Virus record (IMG/VR): IMGVR_UViG_3300028901_000135
Span: 1-37,376 of that record
Origin: a virus
DNA length: 37,376 nucleotides
Direction: 5' to 3' (one strand)
Under the pieces are notes generated by a model. That model was not told the DNA's origin and did not search any database. It was given only the letters and a program-made list of their open reading frames with translations. The position numbers and the translations under genes were made by a program. Below, piece by piece: positions 690 to 37,376 of this stretch. Within the stretch, counting starts at the first letter, position 1; the number at the start of each line of letters is the position of its first letter.

Positions 690-1682
690 GTGAGCAAGCA
701 ATTTTTGAGGATGTATCGCTCGGAGGATGTGTCGCAGGAGATGGGGACGCCGATCCGGTATACGATCGCGACGGAGGGGATCAAGCGCGACGGTTTGAAT
801 TTGAAGGTGGCCGGGGCGCGGGTGGATAACTATCTGCGCAACCCGATTGTTACCTGGGTGCACGATTTCATGGGGCAGCGGCTGCCGATCGGGCGGGCGG
901 CGCTGATCATCGGGGCGGACAGCATCGATGCGGAGATCACCTTCGACCAGGAAGACGAATTCGCGCGCCAGGTGGAGAGCAAGTACCGCCGGGGTTATTT
1001 GAACGCGGTCAGTGTGAGCTGGAACCCGCTGCAAATGAACGGGCGTGATGTGGATGAGTGGGAGTTCCTGGAGCTGGCCGCGGTGCCGGTGCCGGGGGAT
1101 CCGGATGCGTTGATCAAGCGCCAGTATGAGGCGCTGGGTGAGTTGCTGGGAGAAACCTCTCTCCCGGCCTCTCCCCTAGAGGGGAGAGGGGCGGAAGGAG
1201 CCGAGGGCCTGTGGGAGGAATTGGCGGCCGAGATGGTCGACGTTTTCCTTCGGGGGTCTGATGAAAGCGGAAGTCGGGAGGGGCGTTATCGGGCGCTTTT
1301 GCCGAGGTACCGGAAGCTCGGGAAGGTTGCGCCGGAGTTCATCGACGATGAGGGTCTGAGGGGTTTGGGCAGCGCGGAGCTGCGCGGGTTGTTCCTGGAG
1401 GGCGAGTGGGGACTCGTTTTCCCCGAGGAACCTACCCCCCGCCCCTCGCTAAAGGGAGGGGAGAAGAGGAAGGGCGCGGTGCTGAGCAAGCGGAACCTGG
1501 ATGATCTGGGGCGGGCGGTGGAGCTGGTGAGCGGCGTGATCGAGCGGGCGAGGAAAGAGGATTCAACCGCGGAGGAAGAGGCGGGTAAGGATACCCGCCC
1601 TACCGATGAGGAGGAGGAGAGCCGGGCGGCGTTCGAGGGATTGAACCAATTTTTGGATAGGCTGAATAAGCTGGAGGTTTGA
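690..1682 (+). CDS. Prohead protease (HK97/S78-like) with a long acidic C-terminal tail
   Basis: Lies between the portal and major capsid genes. The N-terminal ~150 aa (NPIVTWVHDFMGQRLPIGRA, GYLNAVSVSW, ELAAVPVPGDP) fit the HK97 prohead protease pattern. SD aaggagg 677-683 precedes GTG 690 (ATG 711 is an alternative). The tail carries three in-frame repeat copies. Confidence 0.8.
   Translation: MSKQFLRMYRSEDVSQEMGTPIRYTIATEGIKRDGLNLKVAGARVDNYLRNPIVTWVHDFMGQRLPIGRAALIIGADSIDAEITFDQEDEFARQVESKYRRGYLNAVSVSWNPLQMNGRDVDEWEFLELAAVPVPGDPDALIKRQYEALGELLGETSLPASPLEGRGAEGAEGLWEELAAEMVDVFLRGSDESGSREGRYRALLPRYRKLGKVAPEFIDDEGLRGLGSAELRGLFLEGEWGLVFPEEPTPRPSLKGGEKRKGAVLSKRNLDDLGRAVELVSGVIERARKEDSTAEEEAGKDTRPTDEEEESRAAFEGLNQFLDRLNKLEV
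1156..1191 (+). repeat. Family-H hairpin repeat (C-rich arm / G-rich arm; consensus about CCTACCCCYGNCCCCTCCCTAAAGGGAGGGG)
   Basis: Stem cctctcccc/ggggagagg. In frame in the protease tail (SLPASPLEGRGAEG). Confidence 0.9.
1431..1461 (+). repeat. Family-H hairpin repeat
   Basis: In frame in the protease tail (EPTPRPSLKGGE). Confidence 0.9.
1580..1599. repeat. GGCGGGTA-agga-TACCCGCC hairpin (related to family G and to the 32055 terminator stem)
   Basis: In frame in the protease tail (EAGKDTRPT). A near-copy at 36834-36853 lies in the portal-MuF linker (AARDTRPT). Confidence 0.8.
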
Positions 1683-1683
1683 A

Positions 1684-3204
1684 ATGGCTGAGAATTTGAA
1701 TTTGGATGTCCTTTTGAAGGAGATCAACGATCGTTTGACGGTGATCGGGCAACAGGTCGATGAGACCAAGCTGCGCTCGATGGTGGAGGGGCAGTTCAAC
1801 CTGCTGATGCAGGATCAGGGTTTTGCGCGCAAGATGCGCTTTGGCGCGGGCGGCGGCGATAAGAAGCTGGTGGGCACGAAGTACGCGCGGTTTGGCCTGA
1901 GCGTGCAGGACATCGAGTTCCTGTATGACTTGCAGGAGAGCCTGCGCGGTCAGAAGCGGGTGAACGACACCGGCGTGTACGAAGGGCCGAGCGAGACGCT
2001 GCGCAATTCGTTTGCGGCGTTGTCCGAAGCCTATTACCTGCCGATGGAAGAGGTGCGGGCGATGGACCAGCGGGCGCTGGATAACCTGTTCCCGCGTATC
2101 CCGCTGAGCTATTTCCAGGGCAAGGATCTGGATCTGGCCAAGCGCGGGGCGTGGGAGCTGACCGAGGCTTACCAGCGTGCGGTGCGCGCGATGGACAGCG
2201 CGGAAAGCGGTTACGGCAACCAGTTGATCGGGGCGGGGTACGTCTCGGATCTGTGGGAGGGCGCGCGCGGCGAAAGCCGGGTGTTTGGGCTGATCGATAC
2301 GTTCGAGATGCGCAACCCGACCGAGTACCTGCCGGTGGAAGTGGATTTCCCGGAGCTGTTGTTCGTCTCGGAGAGCACGGCCAACAACTCGAGCAATTAC
2401 ACCACGGTAAAGACCGGGAGCCAGCGCGTGCAGGTGGACGCGAAGAAATTTGTCATCCACCAGATGTGGAGCGGCGAGCTGGAGGAAGATTCAATCCTGC
2501 CGTTCGTGCCGTTCTTGCGCCGGCAGCAGCAGCTCTCGATCGCGTATTACTCGGATAGCCTGGTGCTGAACGGGGATACGACCAACGCGGCGACGGGGAA
2601 CATCAACCTGGACGACGCGGACCCGGCCGATACCAAGCACTACCTGGCGTTCGACGGGATCCGGCACGCAGGGCTGGTGGACAACACGGCGAACAGCAAG
2701 GACCTGGCGGCTTCGATCAGCCTGGCCGCGCTGCGGGCGGCGAAGGGGCGCATGATCGACGCGACCAACAAGGTGGACTGGGGACACCCAAACAACCCGG
2801 ACGACCTGGTGTACGTGCAGGATCCGGAGCTGGCCGACCAGACCGCGACGCTGGACGAGATCATCAAGTTCAACCAGATTGGCCAGCGCGCTTTGCTCAA
2901 TGGCGAGGTGGCGCGGGCGCTGGGGCATCCGGTGATCAGCTCGATCGCGGTCTCGAAGACCGAGGCGGACGGGAAGGTTTCGACCACCGGCAGCAACAAC
3001 GTCAAGGGGCAGAACGTGACGTTCAACCGCCGGGCGTTCAAGGCCGGGTGGCGGCGCCGCGTGAAGGTGGAAAGCGAGCGCTTGCCCGCTACCGACCAGA
3101 CGCGGATCGTGCTGAGCATGCGCCTGGGCCTTGGCCGGTTCACGCCGAGCGGGGCGGCCTCGGGGATCGAGGGCGCGGATGTGATTTACGATATCTCGCT
3201 CTAG
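1684..3204 (+). CDS. Major capsid protein (HK97 fold expected), 506 aa
   Basis: Immediately follows the protease, with ATG 1684 two nt after that gene's stop. Size and N-terminal helical delta-like region fit; a hairpin follows the stop. Confidence 0.85.
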   Translation: MAENLNLDVLLKEINDRLTVIGQQVDETKLRSMVEGQFNLLMQDQGFARKMRFGAGGGDKKLVGTKYARFGLSVQDIEFLYDLQESLRGQKRVNDTGVYEGPSETLRNSFAALSEAYYLPMEEVRAMDQRALDNLFPRIPLSYFQGKDLDLAKRGAWELTEAYQRAVRAMDSAESGYGNQLIGAGYVSDLWEGARGESRVFGLIDTFEMRNPTEYLPVEVDFPELLFVSESTANNSSNYTTVKTGSQRVQVDAKKFVIHQMWSGELEEDSILPFVPFLRRQQQLSIAYYSDSLVLNGDTTNAATGNINLDDADPADTKHYLAFDGIRHAGLVDNTANSKDLAASISLAALRAAKGRMIDATNKVDWGHPNNPDDLVYVQDPELADQTATLDEIIKFNQIGQRALLNGEVARALGHPVISSIAVSKTEADGKVSTTGSNNVKGQNVTFNRRAFKAGWRRRVKVESERLPATDQTRIVLSMRLGLGRFTPSGAASGIEGADVIYDISL

Positions 3205-3211: not shown

Positions 3212-3245
3212 GTGATCAGTGAGCAGTAATCGGTAAATGGTGAAG
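3212..3245 (+). repeat. Family-S stop-proximal short tandem motif (gtgatcagtgagcagtaatcggtaaatggtgaag)
   Basis: Begins 8 nt after the capsid stop and is rich in out-of-frame TGA/TAA. Confidence 0.8.
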
Positions 3246-3247
3246 AA

Positions 3248-3283
3248 CCTCACCCCTGCCCCTCTCCTACGAGGAGAGGGGTG
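3248..3283 (+). repeat. Family-H hairpin repeat (10-bp stem cccctctcct/aggagagggg)
   Basis: Intergenic, 44 nt after the capsid gene stop. Confidence 0.9.
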
Positions 3284-3727: not shown

Positions 3728-3763
3728 CAGTAATCAGTGAGTAGTAATCAGTAATCAGTGAAG
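3728..3763 (+). repeat. Family-S motif (cagtaatcagtgagtagtaatcagtaatcagtgaag)
   Basis: Begins 11 nt after the stop of 3307..3717. Confidence 0.85.
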
Positions 3764-3798
3764 AGGGGAGGCGGTGAGCCTCCCCCAGGAGGATCGAA

Positions 3799-4095
3799 AT
3801 GCCGAAGTACAGTGTGCAGTGGAAGTACACGTCGAGCCTGGGCGGGCCGTTTTTGGCGGGCGATGTGGTGGAGTTGGATGAGGTGAGGGCCGAGGCGATC
3901 AACCGGGACAGCCCGGGGGTGTTGAAACCTACCCCCAACCCCTCCCTAAATGGAGGGGGGAAGAAAGAGAAGGAGACGGTCGATGCGCAAACGATCCGGG
4001 ACCGGCAGGTGAAGGCGGCGGAGACGCGCGGACGGGGTGAACAGCAGGCCATGACCACGGAGAATTTTGCCGCGGTCAAGCCGAAGGAGGAGTGA
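3799..4095 (+). CDS. Hypothetical protein, 98 aa, with an in-frame family-H repeat
   Basis: SD caggagg upstream of ATG 3799. The repeat is read as KPTPNPSLNGGGK. Confidence 0.5.
   Translation: MPKYSVQWKYTSSLGGPFLAGDVVELDEVRAEAINRDSPGVLKPTPNPSLNGGGKKEKETVDAQTIRDRQVKAAETRGRGEQQAMTTENFAAVKPKEE
3928..3960 (+). repeat. Family-H hairpin repeat
   Basis: In frame in 3799..4095 (KPTPNPSLNGGG). Confidence 0.9.
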
Positions 4096-4096
4096 G

Positions 4097-7764: not shown

Positions 7765-7767
7765 GAA

Positions 7768-7816
7768 CCTACCCCTGCCCCTCCCTAAACACCCTGACGG
7801 GTGCAGGTGGAGGGGG
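7768..7816 (+). repeat. Family-H composite variant with an inner caccc-tgac-gggtg hairpin
   Basis: Intergenic, just upstream of the major tail gene SD. Confidence 0.9.
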
Positions 7817-8841: not shown

Positions 8842-8849
8842 TTATCGAT

Positions 8850-8873
8850 AGCCCCGGACTTAAGTCCGGGGCT
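8850..8873. repeat. Family-P palindrome agCCCCGGACTTAAGTCCGGGGct (perfect 24-nt dyad)
   Basis: Nine nt after the major tail gene stop; no T-run follows. Confidence 0.9.
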
Positions 8874-8891
8874 AAGGGGCGAGAGGGAGAT

Positions 8892-17681: not shown

Positions 17682-17714
17682 CCTAACCCCCGCCCTTCCC
17701 TAGAGGGAAGGGAG
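17682..17714 (+). repeat. Family-H hairpin repeat
   Basis: Intergenic, upstream of 17745. Confidence 0.9.
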
Positions 17715-22647: not shown

Positions 22648-25521
22648 GTGACCGTGGATGACATCGTAGAGCAGATCAAGGCGCGGTTGCGGATCGAGGA
22701 CGTGATCGAGCAGGACGGGTATCCACTGCCAAGGCGCGGTGGGTATCGCAAGTGCACGACGCCTCACATCGGCGGGTTGATCGTGAACGTCAACAAGCAG
22801 ATGTACTACTGGAACGGGCAAGCGGAGTGGGGGGACATCATCGGGTGGGTGCAACGGCGCAAGGGGATGGATTTCAAGGGGGCGGTAGAGGAGCTGTGCA
22901 TGCGGGCAGGCCTGCCGGCGCCGGAATGGCGGGGCGAGGACCAGTCGCAGCGGCTTGCGGCGCGGGCCAGGGAAGAGGCGCTCGACGTGGCGCAGCGGGT
23001 TTTTGTGCGCTGGTTTTGGAGGAGCGCGGAGGCGCAGGTGTATGCGAGGGGGCGCGGGTGGACGGATGACCAACCTACCCCTGACCCCTCCCTAAAGGGA
23101 GGGGACGAAGAGGCGGAACCAGGGACGCTGCGCGTGGCGATGCTGGGCTACAGCGGGGAGGGGACGGAGGCGGAGCGGGCGGAGATGCGGCGGGAGCTGG
23201 AGGCGGGCGGGGTGGATCTCGACAGCCCGGCGGCGGTGGCCATCCTGGGGATGCGCGGGGGCGTGCATGACTGGGCGAAACGGCACGGGATCCAGCTCAA
23301 TGACGACTGGCTGGCGAACGGGTATATCCCGGGGATGATCGGGCGGAAGCGCTTGGTTTACCCGCACGTGCACAACGGGCGGGTGCGCTATCTGAGCGGG
23401 CGGGGGATCGTGGAGAAGTTCCACTACAACCTGCCCGAGGCGCTGGTGGGGAAACGCCAGGTCTTTTACAACCAGGCGTACAGCTTCGCGGCGAAGGAAG
23501 TGGTGGTGGTCGAAGGGCAGGCGGACGCGATCAGCCTGGGGCAGTTGGGGATTGCGGCGGTGGCGCTGGCGGGTGTGGCGCCGGACGAGACCATGGCCGA
23601 GTCGCTGCGGCATCACCAGGTGGTGTATGTGGGGCTGGATGCGGACACGGCGGGCGACAAGAACCGCTGGCGGGTGGCCGAGGCGATCGGGCCAACGGTG
23701 CGGATGGTGCGCTGGGACGGCCTGGCGGAGTATCGCACATGGGGGGAAGGCAAGGAAGTCAAGGACGCGAACGACCTGCTGCGGGCGATGATCGGCGGGA
23801 AGCTGAGCGAGGAGGCGCAGGCTGCGCAGGTGCGCGGGATGCTTGAGAAGGCAGCGACCTACGTGGAGTCGATCTGCGCGTGGGCCGGGATGCAGCGGGG
23901 CGCGGAGCGGGACCAGGCGCAGGTGCAGGCGCTGCGGGTTGTGGGCAGGTTGGACAAGATGCGGCTGAGCCAGTACAGGACCGCGCTGGCCAAGAGCCTG
24001 GGGGTGAGCGTGCGCGAGCTGGATGGGATGCTCAAGGCGCTGGCCGAGGAGGCTAAAGCGGATAAGGCGCGGGGCGAGCCGGTCTATACGTGGGGCGGGC
24101 TGGTCGACGGGTGGCTGCTGGAATATCTGTACGATATTGAGGAAGACGAGGCCAGCCTGGCATGGCGGGATCCACAGGGACGGATCGACAGCGGGAACAG
24201 CGTGAACATCGAAGGGCGCTGCTACCTGCCATATCCACCCACCGAGACGCTGCGGACGGGGTCGATTTTGTTTCCCAGCGCACTGGGGGAGCGGAAGAGC
24301 CTGATGGAGCTGATCACTTACATCAAGATGTACGTGAACTCGGTGTATATCCTGCCCTCTGAGGAGACGGCGGGATTGGTGGCGTACTGGGTGATCAGCA
24401 CGTGGGTGTACGACTGCTTCGAGACGGTGGTCTATCTACGCGCAATGGGCGGGGCAGGCAGCGGAAAGACGGAATTCCTGTACCGGGTGGGGATGATCGC
24501 ATACCGGACGCTGAGTAGCTCGGGGGCCAGCTCCACCTCTGCGCTCTTCCGCAGCGCGGAACGTTATAAGGGGGTGGTGGCGATCGACGAGGCCGACATC
24601 GAGCAGAGCGACACGGCCAGCGAGATGGTGAAGTTCTACAACCAGGGGGCGATGAAGGGGCATCCGATCTGGCGGACGGTCGAGGTGACCGGGCCTAACG
24701 GTGAGAAGACCTTCGAAGAGGTGGGGTTCCAAACGTTCTGTCCGAAGATGATCGGGATGCGGAAGGACTTCAAGGACGACGCAGTGGGAACCAGGTCGAT
24801 CACGCTGCGATTGAACCCGCGGGAGATGACCGAGCTGAAGGCGGCGGGGGTGCCGCTGACGGTAAACCAGGAGATCCGGGCCAGGGCGCAGGCGCTGCGC
24901 AATCTGCTGTGCCGGTGGCGGCTGGAGACCTGGCAGGCGGAGATCCCGGTGGATTTCGATCTGTACGACATGGAGATCAGCGCTCGTTTAAACCAGGTGG
25001 CCGGGCCATTGATGGCGATCGCGCGCGACGACCCGATCCAACAGGAGGACATTCAAAAGACGCTGCGCGAATATTACCGGGAAACGATCCTCAACCAGAA
25101 CATGACGATCGCGGCGCGGGTGCTCGAGGCGATGTGGAAGATCTACCAGTACCCAGACCTGCGCCAGAAGATGGTGAAGCTGGAACCGGACGGGAGCGAA
25201 ACGATCAAGGTAGGGGACCTGACGCGGATCACGAACGACATCATCAACGAAATGAACGAATCGGGCGAGGAAGACGAGGAAAAGAAGGCGGCGCGAGAGC
25301 TCTCATCGCAGAGGATCGGGAAGATCCTGCGGGGGGAATTGAATTTGAAAATCGGCGAGCGAACGCGGGACGGTTACCGGGTGTACTGGAACGGGCCGCG
25401 GATCGACGGGCTTTCGAAGCGGTTCGGTATCAAGCCGGAGGATTTCAAGCCGATGGGAAACCCTCACCCTACCCTCTCCCAGGAAGGGAGAGGGAAAGAG
25501 AAGCAGGGAGAGATGCTATGA
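22648..25521 (+). CDS. DNA primase (DnaG-like N-terminal region plus TOPRIM) fused to a P-loop NTPase (putative helicase) domain, 957 aa
   Basis: TOPRIM motifs VVVVEGQADAISL and VGLDADTAGDK; Walker A GGAGSGKTEF and Walker B VVAIDEAD. GTG 22648 follows caggag. Two family-H repeats lie in frame. Confidence 0.85.
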   Translation: MTVDDIVEQIKARLRIEDVIEQDGYPLPRRGGYRKCTTPHIGGLIVNVNKQMYYWNGQAEWGDIIGWVQRRKGMDFKGAVEELCMRAGLPAPEWRGEDQSQRLAARAREEALDVAQRVFVRWFWRSAEAQVYARGRGWTDDQPTPDPSLKGGDEEAEPGTLRVAMLGYSGEGTEAERAEMRRELEAGGVDLDSPAAVAILGMRGGVHDWAKRHGIQLNDDWLANGYIPGMIGRKRLVYPHVHNGRVRYLSGRGIVEKFHYNLPEALVGKRQVFYNQAYSFAAKEVVVVEGQADAISLGQLGIAAVALAGVAPDETMAESLRHHQVVYVGLDADTAGDKNRWRVAEAIGPTVRMVRWDGLAEYRTWGEGKEVKDANDLLRAMIGGKLSEEAQAAQVRGMLEKAATYVESICAWAGMQRGAERDQAQVQALRVVGRLDKMRLSQYRTALAKSLGVSVRELDGMLKALAEEAKADKARGEPVYTWGGLVDGWLLEYLYDIEEDEASLAWRDPQGRIDSGNSVNIEGRCYLPYPPTETLRTGSILFPSALGERKSLMELITYIKMYVNSVYILPSEETAGLVAYWVISTWVYDCFETVVYLRAMGGAGSGKTEFLYRVGMIAYRTLSSSGASSTSALFRSAERYKGVVAIDEADIEQSDTASEMVKFYNQGAMKGHPIWRTVEVTGPNGEKTFEEVGFQTFCPKMIGMRKDFKDDAVGTRSITLRLNPREMTELKAAGVPLTVNQEIRARAQALRNLLCRWRLETWQAEIPVDFDLYDMEISARLNQVAGPLMAIARDDPIQQEDIQKTLREYYRETILNQNMTIAARVLEAMWKIYQYPDLRQKMVKLEPDGSETIKVGDLTRITNDIINEMNESGEEDEEKKAARELSSQRIGKILRGELNLKIGERTRDGYRVYWNGPRIDGLSKRFGIKPEDFKPMGNPHPTLSQEGRGKEKQGEML
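23074..23104 (+). repeat. Family-H hairpin repeat
   Basis: In frame in the primase, between the N-terminal and TOPRIM regions (QPTPDPSLKGGD). Confidence 0.9.
25462..25494 (+). repeat. Family-H hairpin repeat
   Basis: In frame at the primase C-terminus (NPHPTLSQEGRGK). Confidence 0.85.
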
Positions 25522-25553
25522 AAAACGAACGAGATTCCAACCTTAAAAGGTCT

Positions 25554-25991: not shown

Positions 25992-26282
25992 ATGTTTGGG
26001 TTGATCGATGGACGGGTATTGGAGAGCTACCGGCGCTACCAGGGGATCCGAGCAGGGGTGGAAGTGGAGACGCCAGGCGGGCCTGGCAAGGTGGCGGGGA
26101 AGCAGATCTGGCAGGGGCAGTTCCAGGTGCTGGTGGACCATGGAGAGCGGGCAGGCGGCTGCGTGGTGGTGATGGCGTATGCGATGGGGATGGTAAAAGA
26201 GACCTATCCCCGGCCCTTCCCTAACACCCTGACGGGTGCAGGCGGGAAGGGAGCAGAGGGGGCGGAGGTGGAGCATGTTTGA
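25992..26282 (+). CDS. Hypothetical protein, 96 aa
   Basis: ATG 25992 follows ggaaggagg. The C-terminus contains a composite family-H repeat (YPRPFPNTLTGAGGKG). Confidence 0.55.
   Translation: MFGLIDGRVLESYRRYQGIRAGVEVETPGGPGKVAGKQIWQGQFQVLVDHGERAGGCVVVMAYAMGMVKETYPRPFPNTLTGAGGKGAEGAEVEHV
26203..26251 (+). repeat. Family-H composite variant
   Basis: In frame at the C-terminus of 25992..26282. Confidence 0.9.
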
Positions 26283-26933: not shown

Positions 26934-27204
26934 GATCGTGGTGATGATGACGCAAGATGAGTACCGGGAGCTCTTCGAGAAGGAGCGGCACCTGGCGTAT
27001 GAGTGCCTGGAGAGCGGGGAGGCTGAGCTGGTCAAGATCGGCCAGGTGATGCTGGGGAGGCGGTGGGCGGTGGATGACGAGGAGAACGCGCGGATCGAGG
27101 CGGAGATGGAGAGGATGTGGGCGTGGTTGAGAAGAGATCTTAACCACGAAATACACGAAACACACGAAATTGAGGAAAAGCAAAAGGAAGAGAAGGGAAA
27201 TTGA
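26920..27204 (+). CDS. Hypothetical protein, ~94 aa, C-terminal tail encoded by family-K copy 4
   Basis: ATG 26920 or 26926 follows ggaggga; overlaps the upstream stop. Confidence 0.5.
   Translation: MEMPEIVVMMTQDEYRELFEKERHLAYECLESGEAELVKIGQVMLGRRWAVDDEENARIEAEMERMWAWLRRDLNHEIHETHEIEEKQKEEKGN
27136..27169 (+). repeat. Family-K repeat, copy 4
   Basis: Read as DLNHEIHETHEI near the C-terminus of 26920..27204. It is followed by a purine-rich tract and ATG 27206. Confidence 0.9.
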
Positions 27205-28095: not shown

Positions 28096-28133
28096 AGATT
28101 ATTAACCACTAAACACACGAAATACACGAAAGG
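28096..28133 (+). repeat. Family-K repeat, copy 5 (variant aaccacTaaa)
   Basis: Intergenic; followed by ggaagagaggagg and ATG 28149. Confidence 0.9.
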
Positions 28134-29223: not shown

Positions 29224-29733
29224 ATGTTAGAGAACAAAACGCAGGCTAAGCCAGTACTTATGACCTATGCGGCCAAAATGGGGCTGGAAGAGGTTATTAC
29301 CATGTTAGGCCATGATCCACGGCTGGTGGGGGTGGCGGAGCTGGAGGACGTGGCGCGGCGGTTGTGCGATGCGGCGGAGCACAATGGGCTGGAGCGGCCG
29401 AGCTGGGGCTGGCGCTATTTGCGGAATGTGCTGAACGGGAAGCTGGAGGCGAGCAAGCGGTTGACGGATGCGATCCTGCGTTTGGGGGCGCTGTTGGATG
29501 GGGCACCGGCTGAGGCGATCGCGGGGGAGCGGGTGACGATCCTTGCGCTGGGGCGTGTGGCGGCGGGGGCGGTGGTCTTGGCTGATTCGCGGCCGTGCGG
29601 GAACCCGGGGTGCAGGGTGGAGTTTGTGCCGCGGGTGCCGTGGCAGAGGTTTCATTCGCGGGAGTGCGGAAAGATCGTAAGAAATTTAAACCACGAAATA
29701 CACGAAAAACACGAAAGGGGAAAGAAGAGGTGA
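29224..29733 (+). CDS. Hypothetical protein, 169 aa, with a C-terminal Cys cluster (CGNPGCRVEF...FHSRECG) and a family-K-encoded tail
   Basis: ATG 29224 follows caggagg. The track's upstream extension runs through tandem repeats. Confidence 0.55.
   Translation: MLENKTQAKPVLMTYAAKMGLEEVITMLGHDPRLVGVAELEDVARRLCDAAEHNGLERPSWGWRYLRNVLNGKLEASKRLTDAILRLGALLDGAPAEAIAGERVTILALGRVAAGAVVLADSRPCGNPGCRVEFVPRVPWQRFHSRECGKIVRNLNHEIHEKHERGKKR
29681..29718 (+). repeat. Family-K repeat, copy 6
   Basis: Read as NLNHEIHEKHERG at the C-terminus of 29224..29733. Confidence 0.9.
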
Positions 29734-30503: not shown

Positions 30504-31028
30504 ATGGACCAGGAGGTGATGCTGGAAAACTATATGAGCCGGGAGGGGGTGTGGTCGGTGCACCTGGTGCGGATGGGGGGGCCGGTGGATCGGGATGGGT
30601 GGCTGGGGAGGCTTCCGTCGTTCGCGGCGGGGACGGTGGAGGCGCGGCGGTGGGTGGAGGACGGTTTGGGGGTGCATCACCTGCACCTGGTGGGGCAGAT
30701 CCAGGATGTGATCGAGATGCGGTGGCCGGATGGAGCCAGCGAAAAGGCGGCGTTCTGGTGGGCGAGGGAGGTAGGACTGCGCGAGGCGGCGAGGCAGGCG
30801 GCGGAGGCATTTTGGTTCAAGGTGGGGGTGCGGCCGGTGGTGGCACTGGTGCGGCAGGCGGTGGAGAGGCAGGTGGTTTGCAAGGCGGAGACGGTTTCGA
30901 TGGGGCTGGCGGAGGTGTACCTGGAGCGGGCATACTGGGCGCCGCTGGGGTACGTGGTGGTGAAGGCCCTCACCCCTGCCCCTCTCCCAGGGGGAGAGGG
31001 GTGCCGAATGGAGGAGTTGGCAGGATGA
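30504..31028 (+). CDS. Hypothetical protein, 174 aa
   Basis: Follows the ASCH-like gene by 3 nt. There is a family-H copy near the C-terminus. Confidence 0.5.
   Translation: MDQEVMLENYMSREGVWSVHLVRMGGPVDRDGWLGRLPSFAAGTVEARRWVEDGLGVHHLHLVGQIQDVIEMRWPDGASEKAAFWWAREVGLREAARQAAEAFWFKVGVRPVVALVRQAVERQVVCKAETVSMGLAEVYLERAYWAPLGYVVVKALTPAPLPGGEGCRMEELAG
30968..31002 (+). repeat. Family-H hairpin repeat
   Basis: In frame at the C-terminus of 30504..31028 (ALTPAPLPGGEGC). Confidence 0.9.
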
Positions 31029-31348
31029 GCGAGATGGTGGCTTGGCGATGCCCGAGGGGGCATGTGCTGGGGCAGGTGCGGCGGAACGGGAGTAAGCGGC
31101 AGCGGCTCCTATTGTATAGGCTGGCCGTCGACCTCTCCCCCATCCCCTCCCCTAAAGGGGAGGGGAGTCTTGAGGAGGTTGACGTGATGGCGGTGGTGGA
31201 GGGGTTGGTGCTGGATGTGCGGTGCAGTATCTGCGGGGGGATCCGGACGTGGCGCCCCGGACTAAAGTCCGGGGCTAGCAAAAACGAAGCCGGGGCTACC
31301 AAAAACGAAGCCGGGGCTACAAAAAGAGAAGAGAGAGAGGAGCTATGA
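31025..31348 (+). CDS. Hypothetical zinc-ribbon-like protein, 107 aa (CPRGH...CSICGG)
   Basis: ATGA overlap at 31025. Contains family-H and family-P copies and a 21-nt tandem repeat, all in frame. Confidence 0.5.
   Translation: MSEMVAWRCPRGHVLGQVRRNGSKRQRLLLYRLAVDLSPIPSPKGEGSLEEVDVMAVVEGLVLDVRCSICGGIRTWRPGLKSGASKNEAGATKNEAGATKREEREEL
31132..31167 (+). repeat. Family-H hairpin repeat
   Basis: In frame in 31025..31348 (DLSPIPSPKGEGS). Confidence 0.9.
31254..31275. repeat. Family-P palindrome gCCCCGGACTAAAGTCCGGGGc
   Basis: In frame in 31025..31348 (RPGLKSGA). Confidence 0.9.
31271..31325 (+). repeat. Tandem 21-mer x2.6 (ggggctaNcaaaaacgaagcc)
   Basis: In frame as GASKNEA GATKNEA GATKRE at the C-terminus of 31025..31348. 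Confidence 0.9.
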
Positions 31349-31839
31349 AAGAAGAAAATGCGGGGGTGTTTTGGGTGGCGGTGTTTTTGCTGGCGCTGTT
31401 GGTGCTGGGGGTTGTGCTGGGGATGGGCAAGAAGGGAGAGGGGGCACCAGTGCTGCCGACGGCTTCGGCGAGGCCGGTGGCCAGCGCGACGGGGCAAGAG
31501 GGCGGGTCTGCGGGTACGCTTGAGGTGCGGGTTGATGCAGGAGACCCGCCCGAACCGCGCGAACAAGAACCTACCCCTGGCCCCTCCCTAAACACCCTGA
31601 CGGGTGCCGGTGGAGGGGTGTTGCCGCCGGGGTTGGAGGTGACGGGGGTGGAGGTGGTGACGTATGTGTACCGGCTGGACGAGTGGGGGGTGCGGGTTTG
31701 GAGCGAGGCGGGGGTGATTCCGGCGGGGCGGTTGGTGAAGGTGCAGGGGTGCATAGCAGGGTTCCGCCAGGTGGAGTATCAACCGGATATGGAAGATCCA
31801 GGGTGGTGGAGGGTGGAATGGATACGTTGCACCCCATAA
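31345..31839 (+). CDS. Membrane-anchored protein, 164 aa
   Basis: ATGA overlap. N-terminal TM helix VFWVAVFLLALLVLGVVLG; family-G and composite family-H repeats in the linker; a beta-rich C-terminal domain. Confidence 0.55.
   Translation: MKEENAGVFWVAVFLLALLVLGVVLGMGKKGEGAPVLPTASARPVASATGQEGGSAGTLEVRVDAGDPPEPREQEPTPGPSLNTLTGAGGGVLPPGLEVTGVEVVTYVYRLDEWGVRVWSEAGVIPAGRLVKVQGCIAGFRQVEYQPDMEDPGWWRVEWIRCTP
31501..31556 (+). repeat. Family-G element, second copy
   Basis: In frame in 31345..31839 (GGSAGTLEVRVDAGDPPEP). Confidence 0.85.
31570..31618 (+). repeat. Family-H composite variant
   Basis: In frame in 31345..31839 (EPTPGPSLNTLTGAGGG). Confidence 0.9.
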
Positions 31840-31840: not shown

Positions 31841-31860
31841 CCCCAGACTAAAGTCTGGGG
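31841..31860. repeat. Family-P palindrome CCCCAGACTAAAGTCTGGGG
   Basis: Starts 2 nt after the stop of 31345..31839. Confidence 0.9.
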
Positions 31861-32263: not shown

Positions 32264-32295
32264 CCTAACCCTGCCCTTCCCTATAGGGAAGGGTG
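32264..32295 (+). repeat. Family-H hairpin repeat
   Basis: Intergenic, upstream of the holin-like gene. Confidence 0.9.
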
Positions 32296-32712: not shown

Positions 32713-33086
32713 TGCCACCGGTCGATACGTGGGCGCAGTACCCACTCATCGCTGTAATTGCGCTGGTCATCATCCTGCTGGCGACCGGGGTGCGTAAATT
32801 TTGGATCGAGTTTACAGCCTGGCAAGACCGGCAGGATGCGAAGCGAGACGAGGAACGGGAGAAACAGCGCGCATGGCAAGAGCGGCTGTTAGAAAAGCAG
32901 GAGCAGGTTAACGAGAAACGTGAGCTGCGCTGGCAGGAGATCTACCGCGAGATGATGCTCGAGGTGACGAATGAATTGAAATGCCTGCGGAACGATCTGG
33001 GGGATCACCACCAGGTGGCGGTGCAGATCAAGGCGCAGCTGGATCAACAGGTGACGAAGCCGGTTGGACGAAAAAGGGCTGAGTGA
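32712..33086 (+). CDS. N-terminal TM plus coiled-coil protein, 124 aa (lysis accessory candidate)
   Basis: ATG 32712 overlaps the upstream stop. TM helix PLIAVIALVIILLATGV, then a charged helical region. Confidence 0.45.
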   Translation: MPPVDTWAQYPLIAVIALVIILLATGVRKFWIEFTAWQDRQDAKRDEEREKQRAWQERLLEKQEQVNEKRELRWQEIYREMMLEVTNELKCLRNDLGDHHQVAVQIKAQLDQQVTKPVGRKRAE

Positions 33087-33796
33087 TGGCAGGAAAATTC
33101 GAGCGGCAGGACCCGGGTTATTATGAGCAGCTTGCGCTGGGGCTGAACCTCGAGGAGGCGGACCGGGAGCAGGCGGGTTTCGTTTCGCCGGAGGAGGCGC
33201 GGCGGCGGAGCCAGTTGGCGCGGTTGGCGCTAAAGAACCTCTCCCCCAGCCCCTCCCCTGAACCCTCTGGCGAGGGCAGGTGGGAGGGAGAGGAGAATAC
33301 AGCGGAATGGGTGGAGCGGTATCGGGAGCTGCTGAACGCGGGGTGGCCGTGGCGGGTGGCGTGTTATATCGCGTGGGCGTCGTCGCCGCGGATCGGGCGG
33401 TGGCCGGAGACGCAGGATGAGCTGGCGCGGGGGGTTTTGGGGCTGACCTCTGACCGGGTGATCGCGACGTGGAGGAAGAAGAACCCGACGATCGACCAGC
33501 TGGTGGCGGACTGGCAGGCGCTGCCGCTGCTGGAGCACCGGGCGGACGTGCTGCGGGCGCTGGCGAGGAGCGCGAGCAACCCGGACCATCGGCACAACCC
33601 AGACCGGAAAGTGTTCCTGGAGATGACGGGGGATTACACGCCGAAGGCGCAGCTTAACATCCGGAATACGGATGTGGAAGATCTGTCGGGGATGAGCGAC
33701 GCGGAGCTGGATAAGATTGCGCGGCAGGCGAGGGGGGAACCTACCCCCGACCCCTCCCTAAAGGGAGGGGAGACTGACGAAGAGGGTGAGGCGTAA
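33083..33796 (+). CDS. Terminase small subunit candidate, 237 aa
   Basis: Immediately upstream of and overlapping TerL. HTH-like TQDELARGVLGLTSDRVIATWRKK. Two family-H repeats lie in frame. Confidence 0.65.
   Translation: MMAGKFERQDPGYYEQLALGLNLEEADREQAGFVSPEEARRRSQLARLALKNLSPSPSPEPSGEGRWEGEENTAEWVERYRELLNAGWPWRVACYIAWASSPRIGRWPETQDELARGVLGLTSDRVIATWRKKNPTIDQLVADWQALPLLEHRADVLRALARSASNPDHRHNPDRKVFLEMTGDYTPKAQLNIRNTDVEDLSGMSDAELDKIARQARGEPTPDPSLKGGETDEEGEA
33238..33293 (+). repeat. Family-H composite variant
   Basis: In frame in TerS (NLSPSPSPEPSGEGRWEGE). Confidence 0.85.
33740..33770 (+). repeat. Family-H hairpin repeat
   Basis: In frame at the TerS C-terminus (EPTPDPSLKGGE). Confidence 0.9.
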
Positions 33797-35325
33797 TGCC
33801 AGCAAGGATTACACCGGATGCGGCGCTGGCGGAGCGGGCACGGCGAGAGCTGGCGCGGCGCGGGCTGATCGCGTTTTCGGAGTACGTGGCGCCATGGTAC
33901 CGGACGGGGCGGCATCACCGGCTGGTGGCGGAGAAGCTGGAGCTGGTGCTGCGGTATATCGAGACGAAGGGCAAGGAGGGGATCGGGCGGCTGATCATCT
34001 CGGAGCCGCCGCGGCATGGGAAGACGGAGCAGGTGAGCCGGTTGTTCCCGGCGTATCTGCTGGGACGGCTGCCCGATTCGCGGGTGATCGTGACCTCATA
34101 CGGCGCCGACCTGGCGCAGGACGATTCCAGGGCGGTGCGGCAGTACGTGACGAGCGACCGGTACAGCGCGCTGTTTGGGCAGCAGAGCGCGGTGGACGAC
34201 GCGGTGGAGCTGGCCTATGACGCGAGGGCGCGTGCGAACTGGAACCTGGCGGAGCCGCACCGGGGCGGGGTGGTGGCGGCTGGCGTGGGCGGCGGTATCA
34301 CGGGTAAAGGCGCGCACCTGCTGATCGTGGACGACCCTTTCAAGAACCGGGACGAGGCGGAGAGCGAGGCCTACCGCAAGCGGGTGGTGAGCTGGTGGAC
34401 GAGCTCAGCGTATACCCGCCTGGAAGAGGGGGCGGCGATCGTGATCACGCATACGCGGTGGAACCGGGACGACCTGGCGGGGTATCTGTTGCAGCAGATG
34501 GTGCAGGACCCACTGCTGGCGGACCAGTACGAGGTGCTTTACCTGCCCGCGCTGGCGCTGGAGGAGGACGAGTACTGCCGGGACGAGGCGGATTTTCTGA
34601 AAAATCTGGAGCGGGGGCTGTTCGTTCCGGCTGCCGATCCGCTGGGGAGGGCGCCAGGCGAGGCGCTGTGGCCGGAGAAGTATACGCGGGAGGCGCTGGC
34701 GCGAATCCGGGCGAACGTGCTGGATTTTGAGTTTACCTGTTTGTACCAGCAGCTGCCCAGACCTCAAACGGGTGGATTTTTCGATGAGGCAGACCTGGTG
34801 GTAGTAGATCGCGCGCCGGAGGGGTTGCGTTGGTTCCGGTATGTGGACCTGGCGCTGGGTAAAACGAAAACGGCAGACTGGAACACAACGGTGGCCACCG
34901 CGCTGGACCAGGCGACGGGTGACGTTTATTTCCGGGATCTGCTGCATGTGCACGAGCTGGGCGATTTCGAGGACCAGGTCGTGGAGCTGATCAAGGCCGA
35001 TTCGGAGATGGGGACGATCTGGGGGTTCGAGGATGTGAGCTTCCAGGAGCTGTTTATGCTGGACCTGCTGAAGAAGCCGGAGCTGGCGAACAAGAACATC
35101 GTGCCGGTGGCACCGATCGGGGATAAGGTGAGTCGTGCGCGGCCTCTGCAACTGAGGGCGAAGCAGGGGAAGGTGAAGTTGGTGAGAGGGCCGTGGAACC
35201 GGACGTTCATCAATGAGTGCCTGGGTTTCCCGGCGGGGAAGCACGACGATATCGTGGACACGGCGAGCATGGGTTTGCAGATGGTGGCGAGCCCGATTGT
35301 GATCGGTGAGGATGCAGTCGTGTGA
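33796..35325 (+). CDS. Terminase large subunit
   Basis: Walker A ISEPPRHGKTE, Walker B HLLIVDDPFKN, and a C-terminal nuclease-type region. The order terminase-portal-protease-capsid is the classical one. Confidence 0.9.
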   Translation: MPARITPDAALAERARRELARRGLIAFSEYVAPWYRTGRHHRLVAEKLELVLRYIETKGKEGIGRLIISEPPRHGKTEQVSRLFPAYLLGRLPDSRVIVTSYGADLAQDDSRAVRQYVTSDRYSALFGQQSAVDDAVELAYDARARANWNLAEPHRGGVVAAGVGGGITGKGAHLLIVDDPFKNRDEAESEAYRKRVVSWWTSSAYTRLEEGAAIVITHTRWNRDDLAGYLLQQMVQDPLLADQYEVLYLPALALEEDEYCRDEADFLKNLERGLFVPAADPLGRAPGEALWPEKYTREALARIRANVLDFEFTCLYQQLPRPQTGGFFDEADLVVVDRAPEGLRWFRYVDLALGKTKTADWNTTVATALDQATGDVYFRDLLHVHELGDFEDQVVELIKADSEMGTIWGFEDVSFQELFMLDLLKKPELANKNIVPVAPIGDKVSRARPLQLRAKQGKVKLVRGPWNRTFINECLGFPAGKHDDIVDTASMGLQMVASPIVIGEDAVV

Positions 35326-35404
35326 ACAGTGAACAGTGAGCGGTGAGCAGTAATGAGTAACCCCCACCCGGGGTGAGGGTAACTGGAAACTGGTAACTGG
35401 TGAG
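35322..35404 (+). repeat. Family-S motif block (gtgaacagtgaacagtgagcggtgagcagtaatgagtaac ... ggtaactggaaactggtaactggtgag)
   Basis: Begins at the TerL stop codon and fills the TerL-portal spacer. Confidence 0.85.
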
Positions 35405-35418
35405 AGCAAAGAGGCAGC

Positions 35419-37376
35419 ATGGGTATAGCTGATACATTCGGAAAACTTGCGGGGCGGTTTGAGGCGGCGCGGCGGGCGTTCGTGCTGGGGCCGGGGGTGG
35501 TGGACCCATACGAGACGGCGATGGGGCACGACACCTCGAAATTCACGGACGAGGCGTATGGGGATTACATCGTTACCTCGAGCGCGGTGTATTCGTGCGT
35601 GACGCTGAAAGCCAACCTGTTTAAAGGGTTGAACTTCAAGCCGTATAAGCTGGGGGCGGATGGGACGAAGGTGGAGGTGACGAAGGGGAACCTGGTCAAT
35701 CTTTTACGTAAGTTCAATCCGTTCTGGTCGATGCGGCGCGCGCTGGAGATGTATTCCAAGTCGATGGGGTTATGGGGGAAAAACTTCTGGTTCTGCGAGC
35801 GGGGTGAGAGCGGAAAGATGCCGCCGCGGGAAATCTGGTGGGGGAGGCCGGACCGGGTGAAGATCGTGCCGGATGAGGTGAATTACATCAAGAAATTTCT
35901 GTACTACCCGGTGAATTCTACGGTGCCGCTGGTGTTCGACCCGTGGGAGGTGATCTGGTTCCGCTATGGAAACCCACTGGACGAGTACGAGGGGCTGGCG
36001 CCGGTGGCGGCGGCGCGGATCGCGGCAGACCTGCGCAGCTCCGCGTTTCAGAGCAACAAGAAGTTGTTCGACCAGGGGATGCAACTGGGCGGGGCGATTA
36101 CGCCGCCGAAGGGAAGCACGCTGGAGAAGGAGCAGGCGCGGGAGATCGAGGAGATGGTCAATAAGCGCTTTACCGGGGTGGAGAGGGCGCACCGGTGGGC
36201 GGTGTTCCGCTACGAGTTCGATATGAAGCAGCAGGGGATCAACGCGCGAGACGCGGAGTTCTTGGGGACGCTCAATCTGACGCTGGAGGAGGTGGCGAGG
36301 GTTTACGGTATCCCGCTAGACCTGGTTGGAGGGGAGCGGACCTATGAGAACGTGGAGGCGAGCGAGCGGGCGATCTGGACGCGGACATTGAAACCGGAGG
36401 CGGAGGATTTCGCGGCCGAGCTGACCGAGCAGCTGCTGCCGATGTTCCCGGGCGAGGCGGACATCATCGAGCCGGATCTGAGCGAGGTGGAGGTTCTGCA
36501 CGAGAGCGAGACGGCGGCCTGGGAGCGAGACAAGGGGAAGATCGAGACGGGGGCGAAGAAGATCAACGAGTGGCGGAAGGAGCAGGGATTAGAGCCGGTG
36601 CCGTGGGGGGATGTGTGGTGGGCGCAGGGGACGCTGAGGCCGGTGAAGGAGGCGGAGGAGGAATTCACCGCAGAGGACCCAGAGAACACTGAGGGAGAAG
36701 AGGAAAATTTAACCACGAAAAACACGAAAGGCACGAAAGGGGAAGAAGAGGAAAACGCGGACGAGGAAGATAACGCGGACGAGGAAGGAACCTCTCCCCC
36801 ACCCTCCCCTAAAGGGAAGGGAGCGGAGGAAGAGGCGGCTAGGGATACCCGCCCTACGCGGACCAGAGCATGGGTGGGAATGAAGTTTGGGAGCGAGGAG
36901 CATGCGCGGGCGTGGCGGGCGTTCGAGCGTAAGGCGGTGAAGTGGGAACGGCGGACGCGGGAGATGGTGGTGGACTTGTTCCGACGTCAGAAGGAGAGCG
37001 TGTTGGCGCGGATGGGCGACCAGCGGGCCGCGCGGACGGCGGATGAGGCGGCGAAGGAACCGTTCAACCGGAAGGAATGGATTCGTAAATTTCGCATCGA
37101 GATGCGGGCTTTATTGGAGGATTTATTGGAGGAGGTAGGGGAAGATGCGTTCGACGAGATCCCCGGAGGTAATGGTGGCACGTTCGATGTGAAGGCGCCG
37201 GCAGTAAGGCGGTTTATGGAGCGGCGGGCGCAGCGGTTTGCCCAGGAGGTGAATGAGACTACCTGGAACCTGCTGCGGGAGAGCCTGGCGGCCGGGTTGG
37301 AAGACGGAGACGGTTTGCAGAAGCTGATGGAGCGGGTTGAAAGCGTAATGGGGGAGCGGATCCAAAGTTCGAGCGA
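35419..37376 (+). CDS. Portal protein (HK97 family) fused in frame to a MuF/gp7-like domain; runs off the window and continues at 2..442 (752 aa in total)
   Basis: Not in the ORF track because there is no stop in the window. ATG 35419. Portal-type sequence (SAVYSCVTLKANL..., GLAPVAAARIAADL, EEVARVYGIPLDLVGG). A repeat-built linker at ~36700-36860 leads into the MuF-like region. Confidence 0.85.
   Translation, partial: MGIADTFGKLAGRFEAARRAFVLGPGVVDPYETAMGHDTSKFTDEAYGDYIVTSSAVYSCVTLKANLFKGLNFKPYKLGADGTKVEVTKGNLVNLLRKFNPFWSMRRALEMYSKSMGLWGKNFWFCERGESGKMPPREIWWGRPDRVKIVPDEVNYIKKFLYYPVNSTVPLVFDPWEVIWFRYGNPLDEYEGLAPVAAARIAADLRSSAFQSNKKLFDQGMQLGGAITPPKGSTLEKEQAREIEEMVNKRFTGVERAHRWAVFRYEFDMKQQGINARDAEFLGTLNLTLEEVARVYGIPLDLVGGERTYENVEASERAIWTRTLKPEAEDFAAELTEQLLPMFPGEADIIEPDLSEVEVLHESETAAWERDKGKIETGAKKINEWRKEQGLEPVPWGDVWWAQGTLRPVKEAEEEFTAEDPENTEGEEENLTTKNTKGTKGEEEENADEEDNADEEGTSPPPSPKGKGAEEEAARDTRPTRTRAWVGMKFGSEEHARAWRAFERKAVKWERRTREMVVDLFRRQKESVLARMGDQRAARTADEAAKEPFNRKEWIRKFRIEMRALLEDLLEEVGEDAFDEIPGGNGGTFDVKAPAVRRFMERRAQRFAQEVNETTWNLLRESLAAGLEDGDGLQKLMERVESVMGERIQSSS
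36703..36740 (+). repeat. Family-K repeat, copy 7
   Basis: Read in a different frame (ENLTTKNTKGTKG) in the portal-MuF linker. Confidence 0.9.
36791..36822 (+). repeat. Family-H hairpin repeat
   Basis: In frame in the portal-MuF linker (GTSPPPSPKGKGA). Confidence 0.9.
37236..37376. repeat. Second copy of the 141-bp terminal redundancy
   Basis: Identical to 1-141. Confidence 0.95.

Follow-up and report, generated by a model that had tools for sequence, protein, structure and literature searches.

We analysed the IMG/VR virus record IMGVR_UViG_3300028901_000135 over its full 37,376 nucleotides (hereafter the window), along which sixteen copies of a short, tagged hairpin repeat, here termed family H, are dispersed, twelve of them within continuous open reading frames (ORFs). 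The first and last 141 bases are identical, so the window, assembled with k=141, represents a circle of 37,235 bp or a genome with terminal redundancy. It is ~90% coding and carries a tailed-phage gene set that includes a portal-MuF fusion (portal domain at amino acids (aa) 55-389, Mu_F at aa 619-743), the large terminase (TerL, ATG at 33796), a 955-aa primase (22654-25521; Zn ribbon at aa 4-89, Toprim at aa 284-349) and a DUF5131 protein. The major head protein (1684-3204) and a protease-like protein (690-1682) are named via weak PHROG matches, the protease match spanning aa 24-150, and the ORF directly upstream of TerL (33083-33796) is labelled a putative small terminase subunit (TerS) by position alone. 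A tRNA scan of the window returned none. Integration genes comprise a tyrosine integrase and a minus-strand serine recombinase; with integrases of its own, and a relative (L135) integrated in a bacterial contig, the phage is temperate. Those primase and portal homologues that bear names come from Anaerolineaceae, Anaerolinea and Dehalococcoidia metagenome-assembled genomes (MAGs) and from one 'Clostridiales' bin, and a host within Chloroflexota is therefore likely. On the plus strand G exceeds C along the whole window (skew 0.09-0.37), and the cumulative curve has no inflection, which fits one-directional replication, transcription or both.

Number and structure of the family H copies

The core 20-mer of the family (CCCCTCCCTAAAGGGAGGGG), with up to three mismatches allowed, matched the window 12 times and was absent from 100 dinucleotide-preserving shuffles, while a scan for perfect-stem hairpins recovered 14 of the 16 C-arm/G-arm hairpins, the remaining two (at 1442 and 36802) having one stem mismatch each. 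A covariance model was restricted to seven copies of equal length, because a MAFFT alignment of 12 simple copies mis-registered the longer stems, and was run with filters off. It returned exactly 16 full-length matches on the plus strand (E 6.5e-13 to 7e-3), the number given in the initial annotation, and nothing further in the window below E = 0.1; on the minus strand it found the palindromic core at those same 16 sites alone, with far lower scores. The repeats are not an assembly quirk: across 7,874 bases, with seven of the copies among them, the window agrees at 100% identity with an independent Logan assembly of SRR10823749.

In direct-repeat analysis the copies proved similar beyond the hairpin as well, on its 5' side, where they share a C-rich tag (GAACCTACCCCYGN as consensus), such that each unit consists of an ACCTnnCCCC tag, a spacer, a C-arm, a loop and a G-arm, and measures ~32-36 nt, or ~54 nt where a second small hairpin nests in the loop. 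The hairpins have stems of 7-10 bp. Loops span 3-6 nt in the simple copies and 22-24 nt in the four that carry the nested hairpin, CACCC-TGAC-GGGTG or a variant of it (hairpins at 7778, 26214, 31581 and 33251); RNA folding energies range from -12 to -28.5 kcal/mol. The stems fall into at least four subfamilies and do not form a single repeat sequence; six distinct stem sequences occur, each perfectly self-complementary. The tag stands 6-7 nt from the stem, and reads CCTAC (= GTAGG) in 6 of the 16 copies and CCTAA, CCTAT, CCTCT or CCTCA in the remainder; many bacterial copies have CCTAC too. Together the copies sum to ~650 nt, or 1.7% of the circle, close to the first estimate of ~1.6%.

All 16 copies are singletons in one orientation, without inverted doublets. 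This uniformity had originally been read from the C-rich arm coming first, a sign which says nothing on orientation because any C/G palindrome reads so on both strands; orientation is instead marked by the 5' tag and the TAAA/TAGA-type loop, which agree in 16/16 copies, and on these markers the uniform orientation holds. A single pure G-arm-first hairpin occurs in the window (3765). No copy lies in the ~4-kb minus-strand cassette, as had been pointed out, and that absence carries little significance, given that ~1.7 copies would be expected there. A T-run follows none of the 16 copies, the 3' flanks being purine-rich (e.g., AGAAGAGG), and none of the copies in the 22-37 kb region was called terminator-like on the plus strand. 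The copies accordingly do not qualify as intrinsic terminators, in which a T/U run comes straight after a GC-rich hairpin.

Insertion sites in the window and in related phages

Relatives were gathered via IMG/VR and via protein searches followed by contig look-ups (~273 kb in total). The closest are the syntenic JGI contigs L133 plus L138 (81% primase identity) and L134 (79%), and the Logan contig L139 (73% portal identity). Fourteen of the 16 sites are empty or otherwise filled in every relative, and six IMG/VR relatives also lack the copies, with clean gaps. Protein alignments show clean insertions of 7-15 residues in the window (in the primase, the protease-like protein, putative TerS and ORFs 30504, 31025 and 31345), and nucleotide alignments show like gaps at the intergenic copies and in ORF 25992. 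The covariance model found 8-9 weaker matches in the 273 kb of relatives, compared to 16 in 37 kb, which makes the window ~15 times as dense in copies. To either side of filled and empty sites the flanking sequence is orthologous and collinear, and the differences are therefore simple indels and not module swaps.

The genes that hold copies agree with those listed at first, with the reservations on TerS and the protease given above: the protease-like gene, the primase gene and putative TerS hold two copies each, and one copy each lies in the portal-MuF linker and in ORFs 3799-4095, 25992-26282, 30504-31028, 31025-31348 and 31345-31839. Eight copies are mid-gene; the other eight end shortly before the ribosome-binding site of the following gene, 12-32 nt 5' of its start codon, with a distance of exactly 23 nt in five copies and 25 nt in two.

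Four of the 16 copies are intergenic (hairpins at 3259, 7778, 17693 and 32274; all copies described here lie on the plus strand). Copy 3 (3247..3281; CCTCACCCCTG, then CCCCTCTCCT-ACG-AGGAGAGGGG) lies past the major head gene, 25 nt from ATG 3307, and is missing in L138 and L139, where other GC hairpins occupy the site. The nested copy 5 (7766..7815; CCTACCCCTG, then CCCCTCC...GGAGGGG around a loop with CACCC-TGAC-GGGTG) ends 12 nt from ATG 7828 and is missing in L138, and copy 6 (17683..17712; CCTAACCCCCG, then CCCTTCCC-TAGA-GGGAAGGG), 32 nt from ATG 17745, is missing in L133 and L134. Copy 13 (32264..32293; CCTAACCCTG, then CCCTTCCC-TATA-GGGAAGGG) stands 23 nt from GTG 32317, at a junction where L134 has a clean gap and L138 two unrelated hairpins.

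Among the in-frame copies, copy 1 (1157..1189; ACCTCTCTCCCGG tag, hairpin CCTCTCCCC-TAGA-GGGGAGAGG) lies in the 690-1682 gene past the protease domain, encodes TSLPASPLEGRG and is missing from the L122, L138 and L139 orthologues. Copy 2, in the same gene (1432..1461; CCTACCCCCCG, then CCCCTCGC-TAAA-GGGAGGGG with one stem mismatch; peptide EPTPRPSLKGGE), corresponds to a 30-nt gap in L138 and to another hairpin (CCCCGGAATAAATTCCGGGG) in L139. Within the primase, copy 7 (23075..23104; CCTACCCCTGA, then CCCCTCCC-TAAA-GGGAGGGG; peptide QPTPDPSLKGGD) falls in the linker between the Zn ribbon and Toprim, which is shorter and unrelated in primase orthologues, and copy 8 (25461..25494; CCCTCACCCTA, then CCCTCTCCC-AGGAA-GGGAGAGGG) falls in the C-terminal tail (last 20 residues), which differs in every relative. 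Copy 8 ends 27 nt from the primase stop codon and 23 nt from ATG 25518. This ATG overlaps the primase stop and likely begins a gene at 25518-25922, as called in relatives (L134 12838-13251).

Further along, the nested copy 9 (26204..26251; CCTATCCCCGG, then CCCTTCCC...GGGAAGGG with the inner hairpin) is in frame at the C-terminus of ORF 25992-26282 (protein P0241), 23 nt from ATG 26275, where L133 and L134 show a 37-nt gap. Copy 10 (30967..31001; CCTCACCCCTG, then CCCCTCTCCC-AGG-GGGAGAGGGG) adds ALTPAPLPGGEG at the C-terminus of ORF 30504-31028, 23 nt from ATG 31025, and copy 11 (31133..31166; CCTCTCCCCCA, then TCCCCTCCCC-TAAA-GGGGAGGGGA) adds DLSPIPSPKGEG within ORF 31025-31348; compared to five orthologues, these are insertions of 15 and 7 residues, respectively. 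The nested copy 12 (31571..31618; CCTACCCCTGG, then CCCCTCC...GGAGGGG with the inner hairpin; peptide EPTPGPSLNTLTGAGGG), in frame in ORF 31345-31839, is missing in L134 and L138. Putative TerS holds copy 14 (33239..33288; CCTCTCCCCCAG, then CCCTCCC...GGGAGGG with a variant inner hairpin, CCCTC-TGGC-GAGGG; peptide NLSPSPSPEPSGEGRWEG), a 14-residue insertion relative to four orthologues at a place where L134 has a different hairpin (CCGCGGAATGAATTCCGCGG), and, at its C-terminus, copy 15 (33741..33770; CCTACCCCCGA, then CCCCTCCC-TAAA-GGGAGGGG; peptide EPTPDPSLKGGE), which ends 25 nt from the TerL ATG at 33796 and is matched by a 48-nt gap in L138.

The closest relative, L138, shares two of the 16 sites with the window. 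Copy 4 (3929..3958; CCTACCCCCAA, then CCCCTCC-CTAAAT-GGAGGGG) is in frame in ORF 3799-4095 and is intact in L138; copy 16 (36792..36821; CCTCTCCCCCA, then CCCTCCCC-TAAA-GGGAAGGG with one mismatch), which is translated in frame at aa ~458-468, within the portal-MuF linker, is decayed in L138. Both are missing from L139, which has its own copy nearby in the portal-MuF linker. Copies 4 and 16 are older insertions, and the insertions are of different ages, one copy being intact and the other decayed in L138, with neither in L139. The comparison as a whole supports the view that the translated segments are nucleotide-level insertions of different ages and not conserved linkers.

A bacterial contig of 192 kb (GCA_029975055.1, JARKPU010000077.1) holds the related prophage L135 (L135 81-3844), whose primase identity is 69%. 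The prophage carries two 39-nt H-like copies within a 163-nt direct repeat (15530-15731), and its lysogeny module is adjoined by an MmeI-type restriction-modification gene and an AbiJ-like gene.

Reading frames and encoded peptides

Both of the stop-free loop frames (cta aag and cct aaa) are in use within the window, as first described, and the frame used avoids TGA in the tag as well as TAA or TAG in the loop. ORFs run uninterrupted through the copies, with domain matches on both sides of insertions. The same family H DNA read in two frames gives unrelated peptides, the shared copy at 3929 being translated as KPTPNPSLNGGG in the window and as KNLPLPLPKGKGK in L138, and the intergenic copies have the same DNA sequence as those within ORFs. 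Had the segments been protein linkers, the peptides might have been conserved among orthologues; such conservation was not seen, and the segment is missing from orthologues. Judged from these alignments, conservation is shown to operate at the nucleotide and not at the protein level, which bears out the proposal of nucleotide-level insertion made from the window's own sequence. The Pro/Ser/Gly/Lys/Glu-rich peptides would then be by-products of translating a C-run followed by a G-run, instead of selected motifs.

Occurrence outside the phage

A loose form of the 20-mer pattern matched at least 120 stretches in GTDB species genomes, most of which carry the 5' tag (G)ACCTA(A/C)CCCC. Among the matches listed are ~31 from Chloroflexota, ~40 from Bacteroidota and 7 from Planctomycetota, along with Fraserbacteria, Binatia, Armatimonadota, Firmicutes, 'delta proteobacterium' MAGs and others. 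The family accordingly does occur in genomes of plausible hosts, namely the Chloroflexota MAGs, and neither outcome that had been named beforehand as refuting the insertion reading, peptide segments shared by all related phages or absence from every plausible host, was seen; the suggestion that it might itself point to the host fails, because it is spread over many phyla. In bacteria, tag type correlates with stem type (CCTAA with CCCTTCCC, CCTAC with CCCCTCCC). Some bacterial copies are full 44-nt palindromes, and some form tandem arrays or inverted doublets, the latter at loci L041, L055, L070 and L085.

Of 109 tagged bacterial copies, 47 lie within long ORFs, 25 in the same orientation as the gene and 22 in the opposite one; because part of the 'opposite' class consists of shadow ORFs in high-GC DNA, we relied on hand-checked orientation cases only. 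Long 'opposite-strand' ORFs in several IMG/VR contigs likewise look spurious and were dropped. In-frame copies were found in genes of Bacteroidales, Fraserbacteria and others, on the minus strand of their contigs (L102 2003-4237, L032 3018-4409, L030 1429-3540, L092 1463-4375 and L008 5025-6419) or the plus strand (L082 1092-3020 and L070 3440-4669). A LigA with a family H copy, its identity confirmed against a solved structure, has a ~14-residue insertion relative to Escherichia coli LigA, and an Lpd homologue (PDB match) holds two copies with little or no net change in length. Forward in-frame copies are also present in GlgB- and RecQ-like ORFs, and reverse-orientation copies, which give PLPFREGVGV-type peptides, in GH92-, Tgt-, ELP3- and HypE-like ORFs (all named by eye), the HypE-like gene containing a forward-plus-reverse doublet.

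In the IMG/VR set searched, to which the window does not belong, the loose pattern occurred in 74 stretches, 32 of which have a tagged copy, mostly one to five each and some in frame, and the exact 32-mer had no match. Among JGI contigs from sediment and wetland, 22, with 46-62% G+C, contain the exact phage-type 32-mer. There was no real match to a 43-nt consensus in 50,697 GenBank phage records, and Rfam 15 gave sub-threshold chance matches alone, with no family at its gathering score. The nested variant had no match in a scan of JGI metagenomes, a collection that does not contain the source sample, and a search with the translated nested element against 5.8 billion proteins returned the window's own protein alone.

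One isolate genome includes a contig of 77.5 kb, viral or prophage in nature (IMGVR_UViG_2836862175_000007), with dense arrays of H-like hairpins at ~44-84-nt spacing (L189 9783-11886; L202 1301-1779 and 6925-7264). They flank a ParB/HTH-like gene and adjoin a bacteriophytochrome kinase, and could be either REP clusters (see below) or centromere-like sites. Pfam and NCBIfam searches of ORFs between the arrays of L189 and L202 gave just a ParB/HTH-like protein, a phytochrome kinase and a D5-type primase.

Discussion

The presence/absence comparisons demonstrate that family H is mobile or formerly mobile DNA, in which hairpin and tag are the conserved property, and that it has entered this phage lineage repeatedly and recently. 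We consider it probable that family H is a non-autonomous palindromic mobile element of bacterial origin, similar in type to repetitive extragenic palindromes (REPs), Rickettsia palindromic elements (RPEs) and MITEs (miniature transposable elements of the inverted-repeat kind), which has colonised a temperate phage. As a temperate phage spends time as a prophage, it would be exposed to the host machinery that spreads family H, and copies were probably acquired during prophage residence, with at least 14 insertions after the split from the closest sampled relatives in addition to the two older ones. The surviving set would be that left by purifying selection in a ~90% coding genome, in places where insertion is tolerated, such as intergenic spacers, inter-domain linkers, C-terminal tails and stop-free frames. 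More tentatively, a host enzyme of the HUH type, akin to the REP-associated tyrosine transposases (RAYTs), might move family H via single-stranded hairpin DNA, as suggested by the GTAG-containing tag and the lack of visible target duplications, and by the hairpin-in-hairpin composites (in the window and L134) and the uniform strand under a monotonic GC skew. Some copying may also have taken place within the phage genome, since the nested composite is present in four window copies and was found nowhere else searched.

Precedents for such a colonist are bacterial. RPEs, reportedly the work of Ogata, Claverie and co-workers, were invoked from the outset as a parallel, and aptly so: like family H, they are palindromes inserted in frame in intact genes, at permissive surface or linker positions, and translated as extra segments. 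RPEs are ~100-150 bp, encode tens of residues, have a CGTC end and are confined to Rickettsia and relatives (PMC3733652), whereas family H is 32-54 nt, has an ACCTAC-type tag and no CGTC end, and occurs in a phage and in many phyla. GTAG-tagged REPs, and the doublets of REPs known as REPINs, are mobilised by RAYT tyrosine (HUH) transposases (PMC3733652, PMC3116915); REPs are reported in Chloroflexi, PVC bacteria and cyanobacteria, and some are intragenic or lie within other palindromes (PMC3733652). Family H resembles them in its size class (20-40-nt GC-rich stem-loops) and its compensatory stem subfamilies, and in some bacterial loci it likewise forms inverted doublets; its tag is asymmetric, with the GTAG of REPs (CCTAC on the plus strand) in 6 of the 16 window copies. 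However, its copies in the window are singletons in one direction, whereas a REPIN is an inverted doublet; no RAYT gene was found among the 40 window ORFs scanned, nor a recurrent neighbour beside copies in 120 bacterial loci; and family H is near-identical across phyla, whereas REPs are normally species-specific. Family H thus corresponds to a REP in part: it has the hairpin, GTAG is confined to some of the copies, and neither the doublet nor a RAYT gene was detected in the window. Bacterial MITEs also occur in genes, for example the QMITEs of Coxiella (PMC5896051; reviewed in PMC10969869), and share with family H a non-autonomous, inverted-repeat structure and some in-frame copies that add peptide segments. 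They differ in being 70-400 bp, derived from insertion sequences (ISs) and bounded by terminal inverted repeats and target-site duplications, while the 32-54 nt of family H show no visible duplication, and no parent IS was found.

Two further comparisons are more distant. The small dispersed repeats (SDRs) of cyanobacteria, reportedly described by Elhai and colleagues in 2008, are said to be 21-27 nt, mostly intergenic and often inside other repeats or hairpins, alongside heptamer tandem repeats. They are similarly very small, and the window too has heptamer repeats and hairpin-in-hairpin composites, but SDR sequences are unlike family H and have been described as cyanobacterial, and we know of no SDR in a phage and of no cross-phylum SDR family. 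PeSL cassettes of T4-type phages are intergenic promoter-plus-hairpin units, proposed as module-exchange promoters, and the mycobacteriophage MPMEs are ~440 bp with an ORF; both are short repeated or mobile sequences spread over a phage genome, often at gene boundaries, but, unlike family H, they are not translated in frame within structural or replication genes. A likeness of the tag to the integron attC core (ACCTAAC/GTTAGGT compared to RYYYAAC/GTTRRRY) was set aside, as the unit is too short, lacks a cassette context and lies within housekeeping genes, and triplex, i-motif and G-quadruplex readings of the tag were dropped as speculation. Family H is therefore akin to the REP/RPE in-frame palindromes already known in bacteria, and what is new is the phage setting and the cross-phylum family. 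In the literature searched, whose coverage is incomplete, there was no report of such elements translated inside phage structural or replication genes, nor of the family H sequence, and in-frame palindromes had bacterial precedents only.

Several observations weigh against a mobile element of REP/RPE/MITE type. Domain scans of 40 window ORFs, ten of which went through a further scan as well, yielded neither Y1_Tnp nor any other transposase domain, and ORF clustering revealed no recurrent protein family beside copies in 120 bacterial loci. The H tag stands off the stem by 6-7 nt and on the opposite side from that in the E. coli REP consensus. Neither a target-site duplication nor a defined target is legible at filled and empty sites, the boundaries being blurred at ~70% nucleotide identity. 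Stop filtering alone predicts that about two thirds of copies would be forward, and by our estimate the uniform orientation in the window has a chance probability of ~5e-4; reverse copies are translatable in one frame and occur in bacterial genes, which hold both orientations, yet none is present in the window, and the 8-9 matches in relatives, like the 16/16 in the window, are all aligned with local gene direction. Eight copies lie 12-32 nt before start codons, five at exactly 23 nt. Relatives also carry unrelated hairpins or heptamer/octamer tandem repeats at the same sites, as at protease site 1432 in L139, TerS site 33239 in L134 and junction 32264 in L138. Orientation, spacing and site reuse exceed what junk insertion plus a stop filter predicts; they can be explained by a narrow permissive zone, by homing to existing hairpins, or by a real role for hairpins at gene junctions.

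The second of these explanations forms part of a broader and decidedly tentative proposal, that family H belongs to a bacteria-wide superfamily of tiny tagged hairpins adapted to survive in genes, with phages as both targets and carriers, and new copies homing to hairpins or junction hot spots. Translation of a C-run and the G-run after it would here give a flexible loop rich in Pro and Gly, in one reverse and two forward frames. The elements could then invade coding DNA ranging from housekeeping genes of several phyla to genes for structure and replication in temperate phages, and homing would account for the different hairpin families at the same sites in sister phages.

The third explanation corresponds to the reading that we rank second, and regard as unlikely: that the hairpins are cis-acting RNA stem-loops kept by the phage at cistron junctions and domain boundaries, for stability or processing of polycistronic mRNA, for insulation or tuning of translation starts downstream, or for ribosome pausing between domains, with the element family as co-opted raw material. 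Consistent with this, all copies in the window and its relatives run along transcription, the hairpins are stable at the folding energies given above, the junction copies end just 5' of the Shine-Dalgarno region with the recurrent 23-nt spacing, and these junctions and linkers are occupied in relatives by other hairpins or by short tandem repeats, including a GC hairpin past the major head gene at the position of the 3259 copy. However, syntenic relatives, at 79-81% primase identity, manage in the absence of 14 copies out of 16, several of these sites being plainly empty; eight copies are mid-gene; the 36792 copy has decayed in L138 with no replacement; bacterial genes contain both orientations; and neither T-runs nor, in 22-37 kb, terminator-like plus-strand calls accompany the copies. 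Moreover, a narrow permissive zone, from the conserved C-terminus to the next ribosome-binding site, could by itself yield both site reuse and constant spacing. The two readings are compatible, as a copy could be co-opted after insertion.

We think it very improbable that the repeats are cassettes for homologous exchange of modules between phages or prophages, spreading by recombination instead of transposition. Copies do lie at gene junctions and in the Zn-ribbon/Toprim and portal-MuF linkers, other short repeat families occupy the same boundaries, and the group is mosaic, one relative having 81% primase but 69% portal identity; against this, collinear and orthologous flanks indicate simple indels, the family is also inserted singly in bacterial housekeeping genes, in which module exchange would play no part, and repeats of 30 nt serve homologous recombination poorly. 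Least credible of all is a selected Pro/Ser/Gly-rich linker motif, or solitary CRISPR repeats acting as RNA anti-CRISPR decoys (an idea floated in the initial annotation), for although the peptides resemble flexible linkers between domains, and an 8-bp stem with a 4-nt loop is like some CRISPR repeat hairpins, the linker motif is refuted by two-frame use giving unrelated peptides from the same DNA, even for one copy shared by two phages, by orthologues that lack the segments and by the four untranslated copies, and the CRISPR idea has no support: at least four stem subfamilies, and single copies dispersed in bacterial genes across phyla without spacer arrays, speak against it, and Rfam gave no family match.

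The usual view is that a compact phage genome leaves selfish repeats no space, and here a single family makes up 1.7% of 37 kb. The primase, the portal-MuF fusion, putative TerS and the protease-like/scaffold protein have gained peptide segments without breakage, which offers a route for the creation and turnover of linkers and tails in phage proteins, and dated insertions can mark very recent phage lineages. That distant phyla carry the family in frame in housekeeping genes suggests a mobile element of wide distribution, one that the literature searched apparently does not describe; if so, what spreads a 35-nt hairpin across phyla, and why it is tolerated in genes, become testable questions. 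Such segments can also mislead gene callers, domain boundaries and alignments, and thus pose a risk for annotation.

Other repeats in the window

All repeat families noted in the window sit on the plus (G-rich) strand. A second family, with seven copies (439-469, 19089-19119, 26602-26632, 27140-27170, 28102-28132, 29687-29717 and 36709-36739), consists of TTAACC-ACGAAAnACACGAAAnnCACGAAAG, after which come a ribosome-binding site rich in purines and a start codon, and may be an intercistronic cassette or a protein-binding site. Both the portal-MuF gene and the integrase gene end on the TAA within TTAACC, and translation continues in frame through the copy at 36709, which lies in the portal-MuF linker a little upstream of H copy 16. 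Tandem CAGTRAN heptamers occupy three intergenic spacers, past the major head gene (3212-3246), before ORF 3799 (3730-3764) and past TerL (35322-35356), and relatives have different heptamers at the same junctions (CAGCTNA in L134, CGCAGAT in L138 and CTGTGAN in L139); the STRR heptamers of filamentous cyanobacteria are similar.

A third hairpin family (GCCCCGGAC-TWAA-GTCCGGGGC) occurs once between genes (8849-8874) and once in frame (31254-31275) in ORF 31025-31348, where it is translated as RPGLKSGAS and followed by a tandem duplication of KNEAGAT. A related hairpin (CCCCAGAC-TAAA-GTCTGGGG) lies at 31841-31860, and similar hairpins (CCCCGGAAT...ATTCCGGGG) are in frame in genes of L139 and L134. 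Finally, a 10-12-bp hairpin (GTAGAGACGCAA-loop-TTGCGTCTCTAC) is present in two copies, one past the primase-adjacent ORF (25782-25805) and one in the integrase gene region (18400-18442), the left arm of the latter being partly duplicated in direct orientation.

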